From a virus (Duplodnaviria > Caudoviricetes), in IMG/VR virus record IMGVR_UViG_3300031993_000008, positions 96,001 to 160,000 of that record: DNA of 64,000 nucleotides; one strand, 5' to 3'. The notes under the pieces were generated by a model. That model did no database searches, was not told the DNA's origin, and was given only the letters and a program-made list of their open reading frames with translations. Position numbers and translations under genes: made by a program. Numbering within the stretch: the first letter of the stretch is position 1; each line of letters begins with the position of its first letter. Positions 9,191-64,000 of this stretch are shown here, piece after piece.

Positions 9191-10375
9191 TTATCCTTTA
9201 ATAAAACTCATATCATCATCGTCCTTGATTCCCTTCATCACATTACTCCTCATCTGGATACTGGTCTTGTAATCCTTGAACCTTGACTTGGAGAAGATAG
9301 TTTCCTTTGTAATCTTTGAAAGGATTGCCGGATTCTTTGCATTTTCAATCTCAATATCAGTTCCCATATTGGTGATGACATCTTCAGGAATACTCTCATC
9401 TGTCAATGATACAAGAGAGGTATTGGTCTTTATGTTCTCAAACAACATCCTCCTGGTGAACTCCTCATCATTTATCTTGGCAACATCATAAATGACATTA
9501 CACAAGAGTTTAATAGTATCCTCCTGTCCATAGATGTGGTAATCAAACTCACAACCCAGTTTATCCTTGAACTGGTCATATATCTTCTCAACAGTCTTGG
9601 GACCAAGACCCTTTGCCCTGGTTTCCTCTGTTGCTGCCTTGTAATATACAGGGAATATGTTGTCTGATGTATCACCACCGACAATCTTCATAAACCTCAC
9701 CTTCTCCGGATCCACCACTTCAATGTTCACTCCTTCAACAAATCTCTCGAATGGGTCATTCTCAATTGAGATTGTGAAATACTCATTGAACAGATTCTCC
9801 TGGGTGATCTGCCTGTTACTCAACTTCTTTATCTCCTTGTCTGATGTTTCAGACACCCAAAGTTTATTATTCACAGGACCATACTGAATGATATGTACAC
9901 CATTAACACACTTCACCAACTGGTTAAGATCCCTGTCAGTGGAAAGTATGAGACTTGACTTACCTTCATTGAAAAGATATTCACTCCATGCATAAATCAA
10001 ATCATCACCCTCACTTCTTTCAACCTGACTCACCTTCACACCAACAGACCTCAATGTGTCAGCAAAATTGGATATGACTTTGTTGAAATTATTCTTGTCT
10101 ATGTCTTCCTGAACTTTCTTCCTGTTACCTTTATACTCCTGCTGAAGAAGAAGATCCTTTCTCCAGGAATGACTGTCCATAATAAACACAACATCATTGA
10201 TGATTGGATTCACCTGTTTGATAACAGAACAGAAATCAACCATCAACTTCTTTTCAAAGGTATCCATATCCTTCTGTGTAGAGAGAACCTTTGACTTACC
10301 TCCCTGACGGAAAGTAGACCAAAGACTTCTGAAGAAGAAGTTATGTCCGTCTATAATTAATGTAAATCTTTTCAT
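9191..10375 (-). CDS. rnh: 5'-3' exonuclease / T4 RNase H-like (FEN family)
   Basis: LIIDGHN, YKGNR, EGDDLI, STDRDLNQL, GGDTSDNI motifs; ATG 10375 follows a class II promoter. Confidence 0.88.
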   Translation of the reverse strand: MKRFTLIIDGHNFFFRSLWSTFRQGGKSKVLSTQKDMDTFEKKLMVDFCSVIKQVNPIINDVVFIMDSHSWRKDLLLQQEYKGNRKKVQEDIDKNNFNKVISNFADTLRSVGVKVSQVERSEGDDLIYAWSEYLFNEGKSSLILSTDRDLNQLVKCVNGVHIIQYGPVNNKLWVSETSDKEIKKLSNRQITQENLFNEYFTISIENDPFERFVEGVNIEVVDPEKVRFMKIVGGDTSDNIFPVYYKAATEETRAKGLGPKTVEKIYDQFKDKLGCEFDYHIYGQEDTIKLLCNVIYDVAKINDEEFTRRMLFENIKTNTSLVSLTDESIPEDVITNMGTDIEIENAKNPAILSKITKETIFSKSRFKDYKTSIQMRSNVMKGIKDDDDMSFIKG

Positions 10376-55885: not shown

Positions 55886-55985
55886 GCCTTAAAAATAACA
55901 AAAAGAGATGTATTTTTGAGAAATACTATAAAATAAAATAAGTTATAAACTCCATAAATATCTATATAGTCAAAAAAATAACACT

Positions 55986-56204
55986 ATGGCAAAAGACGTT
56001 GAAACTATTTCTTATATTGATTTGGGTGATGGTGACCAGCATCCTATTGATGCTGTTACTGTCGGAGGTAAGGCAGCAAGTGCTTTCCAGGAAAGTAAGA
56101 TTGTGACAACAATCAGTTCAAGTTCAGATGATGAACATTATCCTTCAGCAAAATGTATGTGGGATATTATTGGTAATATAGAAACAAGATTAAGTAACAT
56201 TTAA
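55986..56204 (+). CDS. Small fibre anchor/adaptor-like protein
   Basis: DAVTVGGKAASAF and SSSSDDEHYPSAK resemble phage fibre shaft motifs; late promoter at 55953. Confidence 0.5.
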   Translation: MAKDVETISYIDLGDGDQHPIDAVTVGGKAASAFQESKIVTTISSSSDDEHYPSAKCMWDIIGNIETRLSNI

Positions 56205-56217
56205 AAATATATAGATT

Positions 56218-58389
56218 ATGGCAGATTATCCTTGGACTTCATTATCTGGATCAGATGCACCCGATACATCACATACATGGAGAGGAATATCTATAACTTC
56301 ATGTAATACTTCATCTGCAGCCGAATTGAGGTCAATAGATGAAAATGTACCTATAACTGTTGCAAAAAATAGTACAACACTTGTGTTTATACAATACACA
56401 AAAAATGGTGAAGAATATGATAAAAATGTATCAGTGGGAATATATCCTTCTAGTACAGGTATTTCTAGTGATTGTAGTGGATTTGTGGGTATTGGTTCTG
56501 ATAATAGTAATAAGTATGTAATATCTGGTGGAGACACAACTGTTGCGGCAATTGATCCATACACTAAATATGGAGGTATAGAAGTGTATGCAATACACAA
56601 CTTTGATACTTCACAGGATATTACTTTTTGGATGGCTGGTTCTGGATATTTTAGAAATGTGTATTATGATGTAAATAAATTCTTCAAGGCATCATATTTT
56701 CTTGAAGAAAATGATGGTGCTTCAAGTTGGAAAGATATTGAAAAGTATGGTTGTAGATTTGCTTTTATAGCAAGGAAATATACAACATCTACAGAACAAA
56801 TTCAAGGAGAGAATGTAACAGTTACAGTAAATGAATGGATAAAATACAATTATACATTTTATACAGGTTATACTTATACTATTATACTTGATGTTAATTG
56901 TTCTGATACAAATCATGCAGGATATTATGAAGGTATTGCTTTTTTTAGTTATGACAAAGAAGAACCAAATGTAGGTACAAAAACTTCAGAAATATCAGGT
57001 TTGGAACATGATGCAGATGATAATCCTATATTTGTAGATGGTGATAATAGACATAAAGAATTTGTATATAATCCCACTTCTGATACAACAGGTTATTTCT
57101 ATTTTAGAAAAAATAAATTTGGAGTTGGAGGTATACATTTTGGTCATATAAAGATTATCAGACATATAAATGTAAATATAGGTTCAAATGGTGGAAGTAC
57201 ACAAACACTTAAGTTGAAACCTTATACAGCAGAATATTCTAATATAATACCAGGTATATCTGCACCAACAAGAATGGGTTCAAATAGTATACCATACACA
57301 TTCATTAGTGATGGTTTTTTCACCTCAACACTTGGAAGTGATATGATTTTGAAGTTAAGTGTAAATACTCATACTTCAACTTCTGGATATTATATAAACA
57401 ACTTTGATAAAACAATTGTAACATCTTCTGCTGATTTGTATTGGTATGCTCATTGGGGAAACACAATCTCATATAATCTTACAAGTTCAAGTCCAATATA
57501 TATGTGGGCGACATTGGGAGCAACAGAAGCATCAGAAACAAAGGAAAGTACATATGTTATCATAGCTTCTGAAGGTGTAAAATGTGCATCTAGTGGAACT
57601 GTATCAACATCATTCAGCAGTAGTTCTGGTTTTACAATTGACAGTACTGCACAATACTTATATGCACCAGATGGAAAAGCCACAGGGGTTTCATATAGTC
57701 ATAATGATAGAATACATTTTACATCTCCAAGTAAAACAACATATCCAACTTGTGAAGGTATGACAATGAATACAAATATTGTTCCACCTGTTTATGTTTC
57801 TGCTGTTATGGTCAGTGAATATGGTACACCAAATCCTCCAAGTATTAGTCAGACAAATATAATTCCTGCATATGGGGTTACATTGAACAGTACAAATTTG
57901 AGTAATTATTTTTCTTGGGGTGGTTCAGTACAATATATCAATTATAACAATGGAAGGACAAGAAGTGGAGATATTACATATACCAAGGGTGGAACTGGAA
58001 AAATCCCTTCATTGGGTATCAGTTATAAAAGTACAAATACATCAGCCGATATCAATGGCAGTGTGAAACCATATGTTCAGGCAAATGGTGAGGGAGGAAT
58101 GAGTAATACTTCTCAAATAACAAAGGCAAACCAGGAACCAAATGTGGTTACAAATGTATATACATATTTGGTTAATAACCCTTCTTCATCCACTTCCACT
58201 TCAGGAAGTTTTCATGTGAGTTATGGTTCTATGTTTGGTTTGTGTATGGTTGCAAGATATACATCAGGTGAGGAAAGGGATATATTTGGTGATGGAGTTG
58301 AGGATAGTGTTTCTTTTAGTCTGTCATTACCTTCACACTTGGAATATGTAAAGGTATCTGATCAATTTGTAGATGTATCAGGACAATAA
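56218..58389 (+). CDS. Fibre/adhesin paralog A (variable head, Listeria-Bacteroides repeat, half Big_2 at C-terminus)
   Basis: TRMGSN..YTF..GFFTS..YAHWGNTISY; VARYTSGEERDI. Confidence 0.65.
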   Translation: MADYPWTSLSGSDAPDTSHTWRGISITSCNTSSAAELRSIDENVPITVAKNSTTLVFIQYTKNGEEYDKNVSVGIYPSSTGISSDCSGFVGIGSDNSNKYVISGGDTTVAAIDPYTKYGGIEVYAIHNFDTSQDITFWMAGSGYFRNVYYDVNKFFKASYFLEENDGASSWKDIEKYGCRFAFIARKYTTSTEQIQGENVTVTVNEWIKYNYTFYTGYTYTIILDVNCSDTNHAGYYEGIAFFSYDKEEPNVGTKTSEISGLEHDADDNPIFVDGDNRHKEFVYNPTSDTTGYFYFRKNKFGVGGIHFGHIKIIRHINVNIGSNGGSTQTLKLKPYTAEYSNIIPGISAPTRMGSNSIPYTFISDGFFTSTLGSDMILKLSVNTHTSTSGYYINNFDKTIVTSSADLYWYAHWGNTISYNLTSSSPIYMWATLGATEASETKESTYVIIASEGVKCASSGTVSTSFSSSSGFTIDSTAQYLYAPDGKATGVSYSHNDRIHFTSPSKTTYPTCEGMTMNTNIVPPVYVSAVMVSEYGTPNPPSISQTNIIPAYGVTLNSTNLSNYFSWGGSVQYINYNNGRTRSGDITYTKGGTGKIPSLGISYKSTNTSADINGSVKPYVQANGEGGMSNTSQITKANQEPNVVTNVYTYLVNNPSSSTSTSGSFHVSYGSMFGLCMVARYTSGEERDIFGDGVEDSVSFSLSLPSHLEYVKVSDQFVDVSGQ

Positions 58390-58429
58390 ATATAATAAGA
58401 ATTAATAATATTTTAAAAAATATAATATT

Positions 58430-60418
58430 ATGGGATATAAAACATGGTCAAATGAATCTGTTGGTAGTTATGCAGGAAGAGGTTTATATAAAAATGGTAC
58501 ATCCGGAGGTGCAGACCTTTTTGCTCCTGATGCAAGTATAATAACTGTTGCTAGGGGAACAACTCTTGTGTATATGGAAACATTGACAGCAGGTATGTCT
58601 GGAGATTATTTGGGATTGCGTAATAGTCCAAGTGGTAGTAGAAACACTTGGATATCAACTGGTTTATATTCATATCAAAGTTATTATGTAGCAGACCTTG
58701 GTGGTGGACCTGGAGGAACTTTTAATGGAACATATGGAGGTAATACCTGTACTGCAATATTTACAATGGAGTCTTATCCTAACCAATCACAGATTTATGG
58801 TCATGCCGAGGGCTCTTGTCAAAGGAATGGAGATGGAAGTCAAGATTTTGAGGCAAGATATGTTAAAACCAGTAGTGGGTTGGAAACATGGGCATCCATA
58901 ACAGATGTACATGGTTATACATATGCTGCCATAACTTTGAATACTGATAGTTACAATGGTTGGTATCATTACTCATATTTATTTTATGGTGGTTTTACTT
59001 ATAATATTACACTTCAGGTATATTGTCCAACTAATGCATATGAAGGTATTGCTGTATTTAATACTACAAAATCAAATAATCAAACAAGTACACAAATAAA
59101 AAACTTAAGTGGTGTACTGTATTATTGTCAGGCAAATGAAAATGGTGGATATAAAAATTTTGATTATACTCCATCTTCAAATACAACTCTTCATTTTTAT
59201 TTTAGGAGGAATGGTGATGTTATAACAAGTAATTATTGGCGCCGTGCATATATAAAAATTGTTATGAAAAACAATGTGGTTGTGTATGGTAATGGTAATG
59301 GTGATTCTACTACTACATATAAAATAGCACCATATGTTGCCAATAGTGGTGTAATCATAACTCCAAAAACCAGAACTGGTTCAAATGGTATAGCATATAC
59401 ATTTAAAGGTTTCTTTACTTCTTCTGCTGGTGGTGATAGTCGTTTTGATTCTACCGGAAAAATAGTGGATAAAGATAAGATATTATATTCCAATGGTTCA
59501 TATTATTATAATGTGTATGCTGGTTGGGGAAACACAATTTCCTACAGTCCTTATACCACAACAGTCGGTACATATTGTACAACAGCAGCATCTGTTGCTA
59601 ATAGTGCTACAGGAAATGTATCAGTAAAGGTGGCTGCTGAACCTGCAAAGTGTGCATCTGGTGAAACATTGTCTGTATCAGTCAGCCCTAATTACAGGTG
59701 GCCTACTATAAACAGTGATGCACAATATCTGACTGTATCAAATGGATTGGCTGGAGGTCAGACATATGGTGGTCCTAATGTGTATATTTCATCCAAGAGT
59801 GGAAGTAATTATCAGTCTATGGAACTGTCAAAATCTCTTCCATCCATTAGACTTTCCAAAGTTGCTGTAACTACATATGGTACACCCACCACTCCTACAA
59901 TTACACAAACCAGAAATATTTATCCTTCAGTATATTCTATAAATAGTAATAATGTGACAACCTTTTTCAGCGGAAAAAATTCAACACAGACCATTACTTA
60001 TACCAATGGTGCCACAAGAAATGGAAGTATAACATATGAATGGGGCGGAAGTAAAACATTGGATTTGGGTATGACATATATGCCTAGTAGTTCAACAGTC
60101 AATTTCAATAACAGTGTATATGTTTGTGCAAAGGGTGAAAACAGTATATATTCTTCAAAAGCATATATATCAACTGCTACAGTTGCATCAAATGTAATTA
60201 CAAATCTGTATCTGCTTGAACCTTATAATCAGGAATCATCACAACCTGATGATCTTTATTGGGCTGACCCGAATAGTAGTCAAAGACTTTTTTTAATAGT
60301 TGCAAGGTATACATCTGGTGAAGAAAGGGAAATCTTAAATAATAACGGTAATCTCCATTATAGTTATTATGCATCTCCTTCTGATATGTTGTCTATGGTT
60401 ATGATATCTTGGTATTAA
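58430..60418 (+). CDS. Fibre/adhesin paralog B (same architecture as A)
   Basis: TRTGSN..YTFKGFFTS..YAGWGNTISY; VARYTSGEEREI. Confidence 0.65.
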   Translation: MGYKTWSNESVGSYAGRGLYKNGTSGGADLFAPDASIITVARGTTLVYMETLTAGMSGDYLGLRNSPSGSRNTWISTGLYSYQSYYVADLGGGPGGTFNGTYGGNTCTAIFTMESYPNQSQIYGHAEGSCQRNGDGSQDFEARYVKTSSGLETWASITDVHGYTYAAITLNTDSYNGWYHYSYLFYGGFTYNITLQVYCPTNAYEGIAVFNTTKSNNQTSTQIKNLSGVLYYCQANENGGYKNFDYTPSSNTTLHFYFRRNGDVITSNYWRRAYIKIVMKNNVVVYGNGNGDSTTTYKIAPYVANSGVIITPKTRTGSNGIAYTFKGFFTSSAGGDSRFDSTGKIVDKDKILYSNGSYYYNVYAGWGNTISYSPYTTTVGTYCTTAASVANSATGNVSVKVAAEPAKCASGETLSVSVSPNYRWPTINSDAQYLTVSNGLAGGQTYGGPNVYISSKSGSNYQSMELSKSLPSIRLSKVAVTTYGTPTTPTITQTRNIYPSVYSINSNNVTTFFSGKNSTQTITYTNGATRNGSITYEWGGSKTLDLGMTYMPSSSTVNFNNSVYVCAKGENSIYSSKAYISTATVASNVITNLYLLEPYNQESSQPDDLYWADPNSSQRLFLIVARYTSGEEREILNNNGNLHYSYYASPSDMLSMVMISWY

Positions 60419-60445
60419 ATAAAATAAAATAATTAACAATTAAAT

Positions 60446-63400
60446 ATGGCCAATGCTTTACTAATATCACCATTACATCACGGAACAGGTTCTTTTACTA
60501 TAACCTGTGAAAACTATACCAGGAACTTTAATGCTGAAGTGGGATGTTATGGTAATGCATCTTTTAGTACTACCATTAACACCGGGACCTTGAAATATGA
60601 CGGTTCCGCAAAAAATCTCACATCATCAACAAGTACATCTGGTATATCATCATATTCATTGGGTTATAAGAAGGGGTCTCAAGCAACAAGTGATAGTCAG
60701 ATAACATGGCAGACAAACCCTTCAGGTGGTAAACTCACTGCAACTGATGCTGGTACATATTATATTTACAAAAAGTATACTGTCAATAGGGATTATTGTG
60801 GAAGTGATCTCGCATATACCTATGTGGGTTCAAAGGTCATAGGATGTGGTGATGCTTATGTAGCAACAAATGGATGGACACATAATGGAAGTCAGTATAT
60901 GGAGTATAATCCTATGGACTCCCAGAAGGTCTATCTTAAAACAAAGAATAATACTGGTAGTCTAACCCAACCAGGAAGTGTTACATATGCCGATGGTTAT
61001 TCTACTTCCGGAACATGGACTCTTTATTCTGATAGTGGTGGATATTATATTATGATTCCTGCTGGTATTCATGGAGGAACCTGGTCAGTTACAGCAAGTT
61101 TTTCAATTGCTGCTTCATCTGATGGAAACTATTGTTCCGGTACAAAATCTATAACATGGAGTATATATATTGCCTGCAGACTACCTGACCTTGAGATTTC
61201 CGGATATGATGCTGATTATATTGTAGATCATTCAGGTACTCTTAATATTACATCCACATATCCAGATTCTGCTGATTTTACTATTTCAACCGGATATGCA
61301 CCTGTTGATTTTTATGCTGGAGGTTATCCTGCATCATCTGATTATATTTTGTATTATGAGGGAAGAATAGGGGCACATGAAAGCACAACTTTTTATCAGT
61401 TGGAAGAAGTAGGTTATGAAGAATTTTATGTATGCTTTGTTTCACCTAATTATGAAAATTGGTGTCATTTCCCAGGTTATCCTGACCAGGATTCCATACA
61501 GGTAACTGTTACTGTTCAGAAATACACACCTACTATCACATTTACCAATTTAACCAAAAAATATAATGGAACAGTCCTTACACCAAACGCAATTGTATCA
61601 TTACCTTCTGGAGGTAAGAGACTGAAAGGTACAATACATTATGGTTACACCGGTTCATCAGGTGACCACTATGTATCTTATGATAGTAATACTGGTTATA
61701 TATGGTTGGAAGATGCTGAAATAAGAGATGTTGGAAGTAGAAATGTTTGGGCGTGGTTTGAACCTGATAGTACATGCAATGATGTATATAATAACAGTCC
61801 AAGTGATAGTGGTAGTATAGCCAGTACAACAATATCTGTAACCAAGGGTGACAATCCGATGACATTGTCAAAATCATCAGTAACACTTTATAGTGATGCT
61901 TATTGTTCTACATACAAGACTGCATCCATTACTGTAAATAACAATGCAGGTACACCAACTGCATCTTCAAGCAATACAAGTGTTGCAACTGTATCTGCAT
62001 TTAATTCATCCAACAATACATTTACTGTAACTTATGTTGGTGCGGGTTCAGCTACAATAACAGTGACAGACCCTGGTAACTCAAATTACAATTCAGGTAC
62101 AAAGACCTGTTCTGTTACATGTTATGTTGATGAAGAATATTCAACACAATATAAAGACCAGGCATGTACAACACAGGGTGTAAACATAACTTATGGTACA
62201 CCAACTGTAACTATTGGTAATTCTCCCGGACTTACCTGTGCCGGTGGTAGTGCAACAGTTTCTTGTTCTGTGACTAACAGTAGTAGTTGGTATCAGAAAT
62301 GGAAATCAGGATGTGTAAAACCACACAGTGGTTCTCCAACCGGAACAGCAACATGGTCTATCACAACCCAGACATTCACTCCTTCTGGTGGAAGTGCATC
62401 AACTATAACCAGATTCAGTAGTTCAGGTAATACATTGTCACATGCAACAATGGGAACAAATGTGGGTACTGACTATGTAAAGATTACAGCAGTTAATTCT
62501 GGTGATTCATCAAAGACTGCAATAGCAGAGAAGAGTATAACCAATAGTGTCACTAATTCTGATTATAATGCAACTAACAGTAATTATACTGCTAGTGTAT
62601 CAATAGGTAATGGACTTACTTGTGCCGGTGGTAGTGCAACTGTAACAGCAAGTGCATCACACACCCACACATATTATTACCTGTATTGTTCAGGTTCAAC
62701 AAGTGGACCTTACACTTCAACCCCAAGTGATACTGTAACATGGTCTATTACATCACAGACATTCACTCCTTCTGGTGGAAGTGCATCAACTATAACCAGA
62801 TTCAGTAGTTCAGGTAATACATTGTCACACTCATCAATGGGAACAAATGTTGGTGTTGATTATGTAAAGATTACAGCAACTAATGCAGGAAATAGTAATG
62901 CTACTGCAACAGCAGAAAAGAGTATAACCAATAGTGTCACTAATTCTGATTATAATGCAAGTAACAGTAATTATACTGTCAGTGTAACTATTAGTGGTGG
63001 TCCTGTGGCTGGTACAAGTAGTGCCACTGTAACAACAAATGCATCACACACCCACACATATTATTACTTGTATTGTTCAGGTTCAACAAGTGGACCTTAC
63101 ACCTCAACTGTATCTGATGGCGCATCTTGGTCTATTACATCACAGACATTCACTCCTTCTGGTGGTAGTGCATCAACTATAACCAGATTCAGTAAGAATG
63201 CATCAACCGGTAAGTTGGATCACTCATCAATGGGAACAAATGTAGGTACTGACTTTGTAGAGATTACAGCAATCAATACTGGTGATAATACTGCAACTGC
63301 AAGCACAAGTAGGAGTATAACCAATGCTATAACTGATTATGATTATAATGCATCCAATAGTAATTATAATGTTAGTGTATCAATAGGTGATGGTTTGACT

Positions 63401-64000
63401 GCTGGTGGTGGTAGTGCAACTGTGACTGCATCAGGAAGTCACACTCGTACTTATTATTATTATTATAATTCTGGTTCAACAAGTGGACCTTACACTTCAA
63501 CCCCAAGTGATACTGTAACATGGTCTATTACAACCCAGACATTCACTCCTTCTGGTGGAAGTGCATCAACCATAACCAGGTTTAGTAAGAATACATCAAC
63601 TGGTAAGTTAGATCACTCAACAATGGGAACAAATGTAGGTACAGATTATATAAAGATTACAGCTACTGGAGGAAATAATACCACTGCAACAGCAGAAAAG
63701 AGTATAACCAATGCTTTAACCAATAGTAATTTTAATCCATCAGGATATACAGTAGATGTATCAATAGGTAATGGTCTTGGTCCTGGTGCAAGTAGTGCAA
63801 CTGTAACTGCAAGTGCATCACATGTTGCTTATAATTATTATACATCTGGATCTGCTGATCCATCAACACATACAGTAAATGATAGTGTTTCTTGGTCTAT
63901 TACATCACAGACATTTAACACATCAACTGTAATTACCAGGTTTAGTAAATCAGGTAATACTTTGTCACATAGTAGTATGAATGATACTGTAGGTACAGAT
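60446..64000 (+). CDS. Giant Ig-repeat fibre/shaft protein, at least 1185 aa, runs off the window (not in the ORF track)
   Basis: ATG 60446; same frame as the repeats at 62369 onward; Big_2 motif SSSNTSVATV...GAGSATITVT at ~61860-62120; BACON-like repeats. Confidence 0.85.
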   Translation, partial: MANALLISPLHHGTGSFTITCENYTRNFNAEVGCYGNASFSTTINTGTLKYDGSAKNLTSSTSTSGISSYSLGYKKGSQATSDSQITWQTNPSGGKLTATDAGTYYIYKKYTVNRDYCGSDLAYTYVGSKVIGCGDAYVATNGWTHNGSQYMEYNPMDSQKVYLKTKNNTGSLTQPGSVTYADGYSTSGTWTLYSDSGGYYIMIPAGIHGGTWSVTASFSIAASSDGNYCSGTKSITWSIYIACRLPDLEISGYDADYIVDHSGTLNITSTYPDSADFTISTGYAPVDFYAGGYPASSDYILYYEGRIGAHESTTFYQLEEVGYEEFYVCFVSPNYENWCHFPGYPDQDSIQVTVTVQKYTPTITFTNLTKKYNGTVLTPNAIVSLPSGGKRLKGTIHYGYTGSSGDHYVSYDSNTGYIWLEDAEIRDVGSRNVWAWFEPDSTCNDVYNNSPSDSGSIASTTISVTKGDNPMTLSKSSVTLYSDAYCSTYKTASITVNNNAGTPTASSSNTSVATVSAFNSSNNTFTVTYVGAGSATITVTDPGNSNYNSGTKTCSVTCYVDEEYSTQYKDQACTTQGVNITYGTPTVTIGNSPGLTCAGGSATVSCSVTNSSSWYQKWKSGCVKPHSGSPTGTATWSITTQTFTPSGGSASTITRFSSSGNTLSHATMGTNVGTDYVKITAVNSGDSSKTAIAEKSITNSVTNSDYNATNSNYTASVSIGNGLTCAGGSATVTASASHTHTYYYLYCSGSTSGPYTSTPSDTVTWSITSQTFTPSGGSASTITRFSSSGNTLSHSSMGTNVGVDYVKITATNAGNSNATATAEKSITNSVTNSDYNASNSNYTVSVTISGGPVAGTSSATVTTNASHTHTYYYLYCSGSTSGPYTSTVSDGASWSITSQTFTPSGGSASTITRFSKNASTGKLDHSSMGTNVGTDFVEITAINTGDNTATASTSRSITNAITDYDYNASNSNYNVSVSIGDGLTAGGGSATVTASGSHTRTYYYYYNSGSTSGPYTSTPSDTVTWSITTQTFTPSGGSASTITRFSKNTSTGKLDHSTMGTNVGTDYIKITATGGNNTTATAEKSITNALTNSNFNPSGYTVDVSIGNGLGPGASSATVTASASHVAYNYYTSGSADPSTHTVNDSVSWSITSQTFNTSTVITRFSKSGNTLSHSSMNDTVGTD
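62200..64000 (+). repeat. About five tandem 372-393 bp (~129 aa) domain repeats
   Basis: Marker cagacatt at 62369, 62756, 63143, 63536, 63908. Confidence 0.9.

Follow-up and report, generated by a model that had tools for sequence, protein, structure and literature searches.

Putative split immunoglobulin-like domains at the junctions of consecutive fibre-type genes in a tailed phage

In the baseplate tripod of phage Tuc2009, the 25-residue C-terminal beta-hairpin of BppU completes a beta-sheet of the immunoglobulin (Ig)-like (titin-like) domain of BppA (PMC4742702). A similar non-covalent arrangement, in which terminal strands of one phage structural protein complete the Ig-like domain of its partner, is predicted here for three consecutive + strand open reading frames (ORFs), called A, B and S1, of the Caudoviricetes record IMGVR_UViG_3300031993_000008. 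The analyzed window of 64,000 nt corresponds to bases 96001-160000 of a single 248,382-bp contig, and all positions are window coordinates unless "genome" is stated. In Tuc2009 the hairpin is added to a folded domain, whereas here the N-terminus of the next protein would give three strands including the core strands F and G, so that neither piece should fold alone. Furthermore, the device occurs several times here, head-to-tail along one chain, and is found again in many proteins, and it is known here by prediction: the sheet completion of the Tuc2009 type was seen in an AlphaFold2 (AF2) model of B and S1 fused into one chain, not two. The single hairpin-to-sheet joint of Tuc2009 is the nearest solved precedent. 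Full-text literature searches gave no report in which phage fibre proteins are joined by a split Ig domain.

The sequence-only reading of this locus had compared it with the donor strands of pili. In chaperone-usher pili and in the type V pili of Bacteroidota, incomplete Ig-like subunits are completed head-to-tail by a stretch at the N-terminus of the adjacent subunit, and this part of the comparison fits. It is otherwise a loose one. The subunits of chaperone-usher pili lack only the C-terminal G strand. In pili a single strand is received, and a chaperone and usher or proteolytic priming are needed, whereas S1 supplies three strands in the model (residues 244-252, 256-264 and 267-275), roughly one third of the domain. 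By sequence, the pilus proteins are unrelated to A, B or S1. A chaperone, an usher or a processing site did not appear among the annotations of the scanned neighbouring ORFs, no search aimed at such genes having been made.

Branched complexes of several receptor-binding proteins (RBPs) form a third group of related systems. In the tailspikes of CBA120, gp63.1/gp66 of G7C, RaK2 and LtfA/LtfB of DT57C, complete adaptor domains reportedly dock on each other. These complexes also place alternative host-recognition proteins with conserved docking modules on one virion and broaden the host range without DNA inversion. Receptor binding was shown there, whereas for A and B we infer it. Finally, Big_2 domains are annotated by Pfam on phage structural proteins; the predicted composite domain described here shares their sandwich fold, but its split copies stay below the Pfam threshold.

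A, B and S1 are probably separate fibre subunits, with a naturally split Ig-like (Big_2-like) domain as their non-covalent joint. This predicted joint is well supported by comparative evidence together with one structure prediction. The following features, all located on the + strand, are involved:

56218-58389, + strand: paralog A of the "tip" family, 723 aa; its N-terminal ~440 aa are without match to a known family
58141-58389, + strand: C-terminal incomplete Ig-like domain of A (first half), NVVTNVY ... ARYTSGEERDI ... SLPSHLEYV plus a 12-residue tail
58390-58429, + strand: A-B spacer, 40 nt, AT-rich, out of frame
58430-60418, + strand: paralog B, 662 aa, ortholog of P0003, the shaft-adjacent tip of locus L002 (41% identity)
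60191-60418, + strand: C-terminal incomplete Ig-like domain of B (first half, residues 588-662); in the AF2 model it gives the composite sandwich its leading strands
60419-60445, + strand: B-S1 spacer, in frame and 27 nt long; two further TAA codons follow the TAA stop codon of B
60446-60550, + strand: N-terminal ~35 aa of S1 (second half), three predicted strands completing the Ig sandwich
60446-64000, + strand, cut by the window end: "shaft" gene S1, full length 1918 aa (genome 156446-162202)

A and B are indeed paralogs (35% identical over 574 aa, E 6e-54), and both contain the strings on which the split had been recognized, including the near-identical VARYTSGEER[D/E]I. The claim that they stop at the same point was wrong. 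A continues for 12 residues (KVSDQFVDVSGQ) past 'HLEYV' and B for five (MISWY) past 'MLSMV', and the two ends lie 7 residues apart in the alignment. The next ORF, S1, begins at 60446 with the N-terminus that had been reported for it.

Relatives of the two proteins were found with one of several approaches. A tblastn search with A against GenBank phages gave no match, scanning IMG/VR with either B or the A+B alignment yielded no relative, and a word-indexed protein search with A+B returned A alone. An exhaustive HMMER profile search identified 18 relatives of A/B. Alignment A6 sets A beside B and eight more relatives, seven with a length of 657-739 aa and P0016 with 1032 aa, all of them less than ~40% identical to A. 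All nine full-length relatives in this alignment end 0-12 residues past the same strand, which follows the conserved motif A-x-Y-T-S-G-x-x-R-D-[IL]. The next gene is legible in seven loci, namely L001 (the locus of A, B and S1), L002, L003, L006, L007/8, L009 and L011/12, and in each of them a hydrophobic strand comes first, from the ATG on, and is followed by a G-x-G turn and another two strands. The second halves of L002, L003 and L006 resemble that of S1, with a Pro-containing strand followed by a GTG turn (KGTGNLSITV, PGTGNISVSY, AGTGRVKVVY). In L011, the protein P0016 combines a body homologous to A/B with a canonical first half at its end (...SSDTNVAKVE), which is followed by a canonical second half (MSILKGKSVGSSAITASF), and bridges the tip-family and the canonical connector class. 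The class of the first half and the class of the second half change together between the loci. Inspection of 7-9 pairs by eye showed no consistent rule by which the tip tails and the N-termini of the shafts compensate each other in length or covary in their residues.

A fused tip-shaft protein was not found among the matches. The split point is kept in all readable relatives, and therefore the split is neither an assembly artefact nor unique to this genome, as had been left as a possible refutation. When longer proteins were searched with the junction alignment, 187 matches were obtained. A link protein was defined by having profile position 239 (the Met of S1) at residue 1 and a first half ending at its last residues. 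This was observed for 14 of the examined proteins including S1, and P0011, P0022, P0023 and P0026 were added by inspection, giving at least 17 link proteins besides S1, some of them on contigs of up to 514 kb. In residues 117-403 of the 760-aa metagenomic protein P0042, the penultimate domain of the tip family is followed by an unsplit copy of the Ig module, which can serve as a reference for the uncut form. Since the module is unsplit there, the complete domain is a plausible ancestral state.

This unsplit copy also fits a different explanation, in which AT-rich spacers or promoters interrupted a long fibre gene at an Ig hairpin prone to recombination, and the half-domains are the evolutionary scars. 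The resulting parts would then attach to one another or to the virion by other surfaces, and the terminal halves would be disordered or packed on neighbouring domains. The lack of a Pfam signal in the halves, the lack of experimental or multimer support for an association, and a level of identity that is roughly uniform over the tip family and does not rise at the docking end, point in the same direction. Against it, both halves lie exactly at the termini and are cut at the same hairpin in tip relatives that share only ~30-40% identity with A, as well as in at least 17 link proteins, where a relic would be expected to decay or to be trimmed. A sandwich without its last two strands is also expected, from textbook knowledge of the Ig fold, to expose its hydrophobic core, and the classes of the two halves co-vary between loci. 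Scars are therefore considered an unlikely explanation.

The halves were further analyzed with profiles built from the canonical class, using the 565 ATG-started ORFs of at least 60 aa as genome background for the first-half profile. With this profile, all C-termini of the tip family rank above every unrelated C-terminus of the background (E 2.7e-11 for P0010, 5.7e-4 for A and 0.052 for B, with 0.14 for the best unrelated one). The second-half profile detects the orthologous N-terminus in L003 (E 1.8e-5), and P0019 and P0036 rank 5th and 6th (E 0.16-0.24). It is solely via L003, P0019 and P0036, and via a clear similarity to P0019, that the sequence of the S1 N-terminus is linked to the canonical second halves. 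In total, the genome contains four first halves (A, B, S1 and S2) and three second halves (S1, S2 and G5), S2 and G5 being the next genes downstream of S1. Beyond these, the ATG-started ORFs of at least 60 aa in the genome include none with a second half at the start or a first half at the end.

The assignment to Big_2 made in the sequence-only reading holds for the predicted fold and not for the sequence: an Ig/Big_2-like fold was obtained in the AF2 model, while the match to the consensus is visible by eye only and Pfam Big_2 (PF02368, gathering score 22.8 bits) is not matched. Membership of the A/B-S1 split copies in this family is thus not found by sequence. An Ig-like sandwich of ~80-90 residues is found in the predicted fused model, based on superpositions with the solved domains described below.

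For the structure prediction, alignment A8 with 16 rows was used. It consists of five read-through rows (L001, L003, L006, L011 and L009) and partial rows for each half, and it contains zero rows with an intact domain. Residues 430-662 of B, a 10-residue linker and residues 1-130 of S1 were modelled by AF2 in one chain, which resulted in a mean predicted local distance difference test (pLDDT) score of 87.9 and a predicted template modelling (pTM) score of 0.68. The pLDDT was 58 in the linker and 94-95 over most of the first 35 residues of S1. B contributes the strands 161-167, 179-182, 190-198, 203-205, 215-220 and 225-233, and the first of the three S1 strands forms a hairpin with 225-233. 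In the model, residues 160-278 cross from B into S1 and make up a single, complete Ig sandwich. With VIA-align, many single solved Ig domains could be superposed on these residues, among them SbsC (Z 10.0, root-mean-square deviation (rmsd) 2.2 Å, 87 aligned), the nucleoporin Ig domain (Z 9.7), filamin (Z 7.2) and the solved Big_2 domain 7r3t_B (Z 7.7, rmsd 2.9 Å, 82 aligned). Since B gives just 74 residues of 160-278, residues of S1 have to be part of the superposed fold. As originally proposed, A and B lack the last three strands of an Ig-like domain, and the first ~35 residues of S1 have the pattern of exactly those three. The modelled Ig array also resembles the tail fibre of SU10 (Z 8.1), the entry 9e99_K from an N4 capsid reconstruction (Z 7.9) and Hoc of RB49 in the Foldseek list.

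Several points weigh against the split-domain joint. The structural support consists of a single fused-chain AF2 model, without predicted aligned error (PAE) and without a control carrying an unrelated N-terminus, and AF2 may build a complete fold from any strands that happen to be tethered to it. Without an alignment, AF2 of the B-S1 read-through gave a pLDDT of 37, which is unusable, and a model of A with S1 was not obtained at usable confidence. On the sequence level, Pfam Big_2 gave no match at E<=10 to the last 90 aa of A or B, to the first 60 aa of S1 or to the B-S1 read-through (TAA=Q), and the canonical second-half profile misses the N-terminus of S1 (E 8.2, rank 15/571). The 12-residue tail of A, which is absent in B, could occupy the place of the first donated strand. 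A two-chain prediction of the last 105 aa of A (4-row alignment) with residues 1-40 of S1 (3-row alignment) reached 0.29/0.28 against a mark of 0.32; controls were absent, and it weighs neither way.

The spacers between the halves bear on the question whether B and S1 are separate proteins. As noted before, the 27-nt spacer of B and S1 is in frame and contains two extra TAA codons. In the seven loci, the tip-shaft spacers are 23-39 nt long, AT-rich and contain 1-5 TAA codons. They are in frame with the upstream gene in five loci, L001, L003, L006, L009 and L011 (binomial p ~0.045); once the junctions S1/S2 and S2/G5 are added, p is ~0.15, which was treated as not significant. Out of frame are the junctions of L002 and L007 as well as S1/S2 and S2/G5. 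The in-frame spacers may trace an in-frame insertion into an ancestral fused gene.

If B and S1 were made partly as one polypeptide, by stop-codon read-through or by bypass of the spacer, the domain would be covalently continuous. The in-frame spacer of B and S1, one of five in-frame spacers among the seven orthologous junctions, would be in line with this. Nevertheless, such a product is highly improbable, since three TAA codons lie within 30 nt (up to five in relatives), since four junctions including two of the seven orthologous ones are out of frame, and since a conserved ATG opens every second half. In addition, A keeps the same half though it does not adjoin S1. The view that read-through is unlikely was thus retained. 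Ribosomal bypass was rejected because no matched take-off and landing codons were seen, stop-codon recoding because the contig reads as long ORFs under code 11, and a self-splicing intron because the spacers of 23-76 nt are too short.

A further argument for separate genes comes from a late-promoter-like motif, CATAAATA. It is located in the S1/S2 spacer (genome 162203-162245), at window position 55940-55985 and at genome 166591-166638, in each case 25-35 nt 5' of a start, namely those of S2, of a 72-aa ORF and of the gene G6. The motif resembles the late promoter of T4, TATAAATA. On the + strand of the contig 33 copies are found, compared to ~17 expected from an estimate based on base composition. 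A, B, S1 and the downstream genes are regarded as separate genes because the S1/S2 spacer carries this motif, the second halves start at ATG and several spacers are out of frame.

The same pattern is found at the two following junctions, which involve these genes:

L001 10246-13548: S2, ~1100 aa, next gene after S1
L001 13625-14590: G5, 321 aa, next gene after S2

S1 is an array of Ig-like/MBG-like repeats, and its C-terminus is a first half (...SSSDTTVATVS) which would be completed by S2, opening with MATITGIKVGSTNITATY... S2 ends in the same way as S1, and G5 opens with MSIVKGIKVGYADITATY... In addition, S2 has an intact internal Big_2 domain (E 1.4e-7, 31.8 bits, above the gathering score). 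The 80-residue join of the S1 C-terminus and the S2 N-terminus gives a weak Big_2 match of 14.5 bits (E 0.034), which is below the cut-off of 22.8. The aligned stretch of this chimera (41-73) spans the junction at 52/53, and each half alone gives no match. Since the S1/S2 and S2/G5 junctions show the same pattern as B/S1, a domain cut at gene boundaries is recurrent in the sequence of this genome.

Based on this, the following assembly can be proposed. A, B and S1 would be translated separately and form subunits of a long, beads-on-a-string phage fibre. The ends of A and B would bear the leading strands, to which the first ~35 residues of S1 would add a hairpin partner strand and the last two core strands, and the complete beta-sandwich would form solely on association of the two polypeptides. 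The same device downstream, from S1 to S2 and from S2 to G5, would lead to a chain A-or-B / S1 / S2 / G5. The A/B-to-S1 joint seems to be a diverged connector class (Pro-containing first strand, GTG turn), unlike the canonical class downstream, and this difference would keep A and B off S2 and G5. We infer the physical association, the alternation of A and B, the location in a fibre of the virion and any receptor role from these data. The link proteins S2, P0011 and P0029-P0039 carry both halves of one class, so that self-joining, or skipping a link as from S1 to G5, is possible in principle; nothing in their sequences obviously prevents either.

Because there are four first halves and three second halves in the genome, A and B would most likely share one site, each filling it on different S1 molecules. 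It is the count of halves in the sequence that suggests such a competition for one shaft, and that count alone. Two tip genes before one shaft are found in L001 and in L002, whereas the other five of the seven loci have a single tip. B is 41% identical to P0003 of L002, compared to 31% for P0003 and A, and the upstream tip of L002 is 30% identical to its neighbour, which is as distant as A is from B. Since B is orthologous to the shaft-adjacent tip of L002 and the tips of L002 are as diverged as A and B, the two-tip pair is, by sequence comparison, old, and both copies have kept the first half. This fits docking of both copies, without proving it. Along A and B, no gradient from a variable head to a conserved dock was seen. 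The tip family (A, B and seven relatives) has no match in Pfam, PHROG or the sequences of the PDB, and A and B carry no receptor-binding signature. They are reasonable candidates for alternative receptor-binding tips.

The split may also be real while the pairing differs: only B would dock on S1, with A placed elsewhere or spare, or A and B would be anchors near the virion and not distal tips. In T4-type fibres the N-terminus is proximal and the gene order runs from proximal to distal, and by this rule A and B would be proximal and G5 distal. The tail found in A and not in B, the missing receptor-binding signature and the single tip of most loci would agree with another pairing as well. It is given a low probability here, considering that no other ORF of the genome (within the set described above) begins with a second half to which A could dock, that A outscores B against the first-half profiles, and that L001 and L002 both keep two tips with intact first halves.

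A wider generalization is put forward tentatively. Large gut phages may use naturally split Ig domains as snap-together connectors with at least two mutually exclusive specificity classes, the A/B-to-S1 type with its Pro-containing strand and GTG turn and the canonical type (...VATVS / MATITGIKVG...). If this is true, long fibres could assemble combinatorially from separate gene products, duplication or exchange of a single gene could swap the heads (A or B), and links with both halves of one class, like S2, P0011 and P0029-P0039, might polymerise to variable length. How phages build long fibres from several gene products and how they swap host-recognition modules are central questions of phage engineering and of the evolution of host range. 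A domain that is cut in two and shared by consecutive proteins would provide a simple and portable joint and would explain the constant break at the same hairpin. It would also predict from sequence alone which proteins connect. Such joints would correspond, in natural and non-covalent form, to engineered split-domain tags, and their small natural parts of ~35 and ~75 residues would be of use for non-covalent protein ligation.

The window has a GC content of ~35% and contains no tRNA genes. It encodes phage-type genes including a primase and an ATPase. PHROGs gave no function for S2, G5 and G6 or for the shafts of L007 and L009. The end of G5, the last member of the proposed chain, is a non-Ig tail in which the motif K-x-S-G-x-W is repeated (VKLSGVWTPV ... 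KKVSGNWVEQ), and the shafts of L007 and L009 end in another non-Ig domain. Both are candidates for a virion-attachment or terminal domain.

Directly upstream of A, B and S1 a further small gene is located:

55986-56204, + strand: 72-aa ORF directly 5' of A, found in the same position 5' of the tip gene in L003 and L006

Its coordinates in these relatives are 398-616 (L003) and 9769-9987 (L006). Over its first ~50 residues the small ORF matches the N-terminal end of an ORF of 1361 aa at genome 219083-223168 (E 2e-5, shared ISYI..G..HPIDAVT), and it looks like a free-standing copy of the N-terminal module of another fibre. In L011, the locus of the 1032-aa tip relative, an 83-aa Cys-rich ferredoxin-like ORF takes its place 5' of the tip, and an IS605 OrfB/Cas12f-like (TnpB) gene lies at the contig edge; the coordinates of these two features in L011 are 1-656 and 9748-9999.

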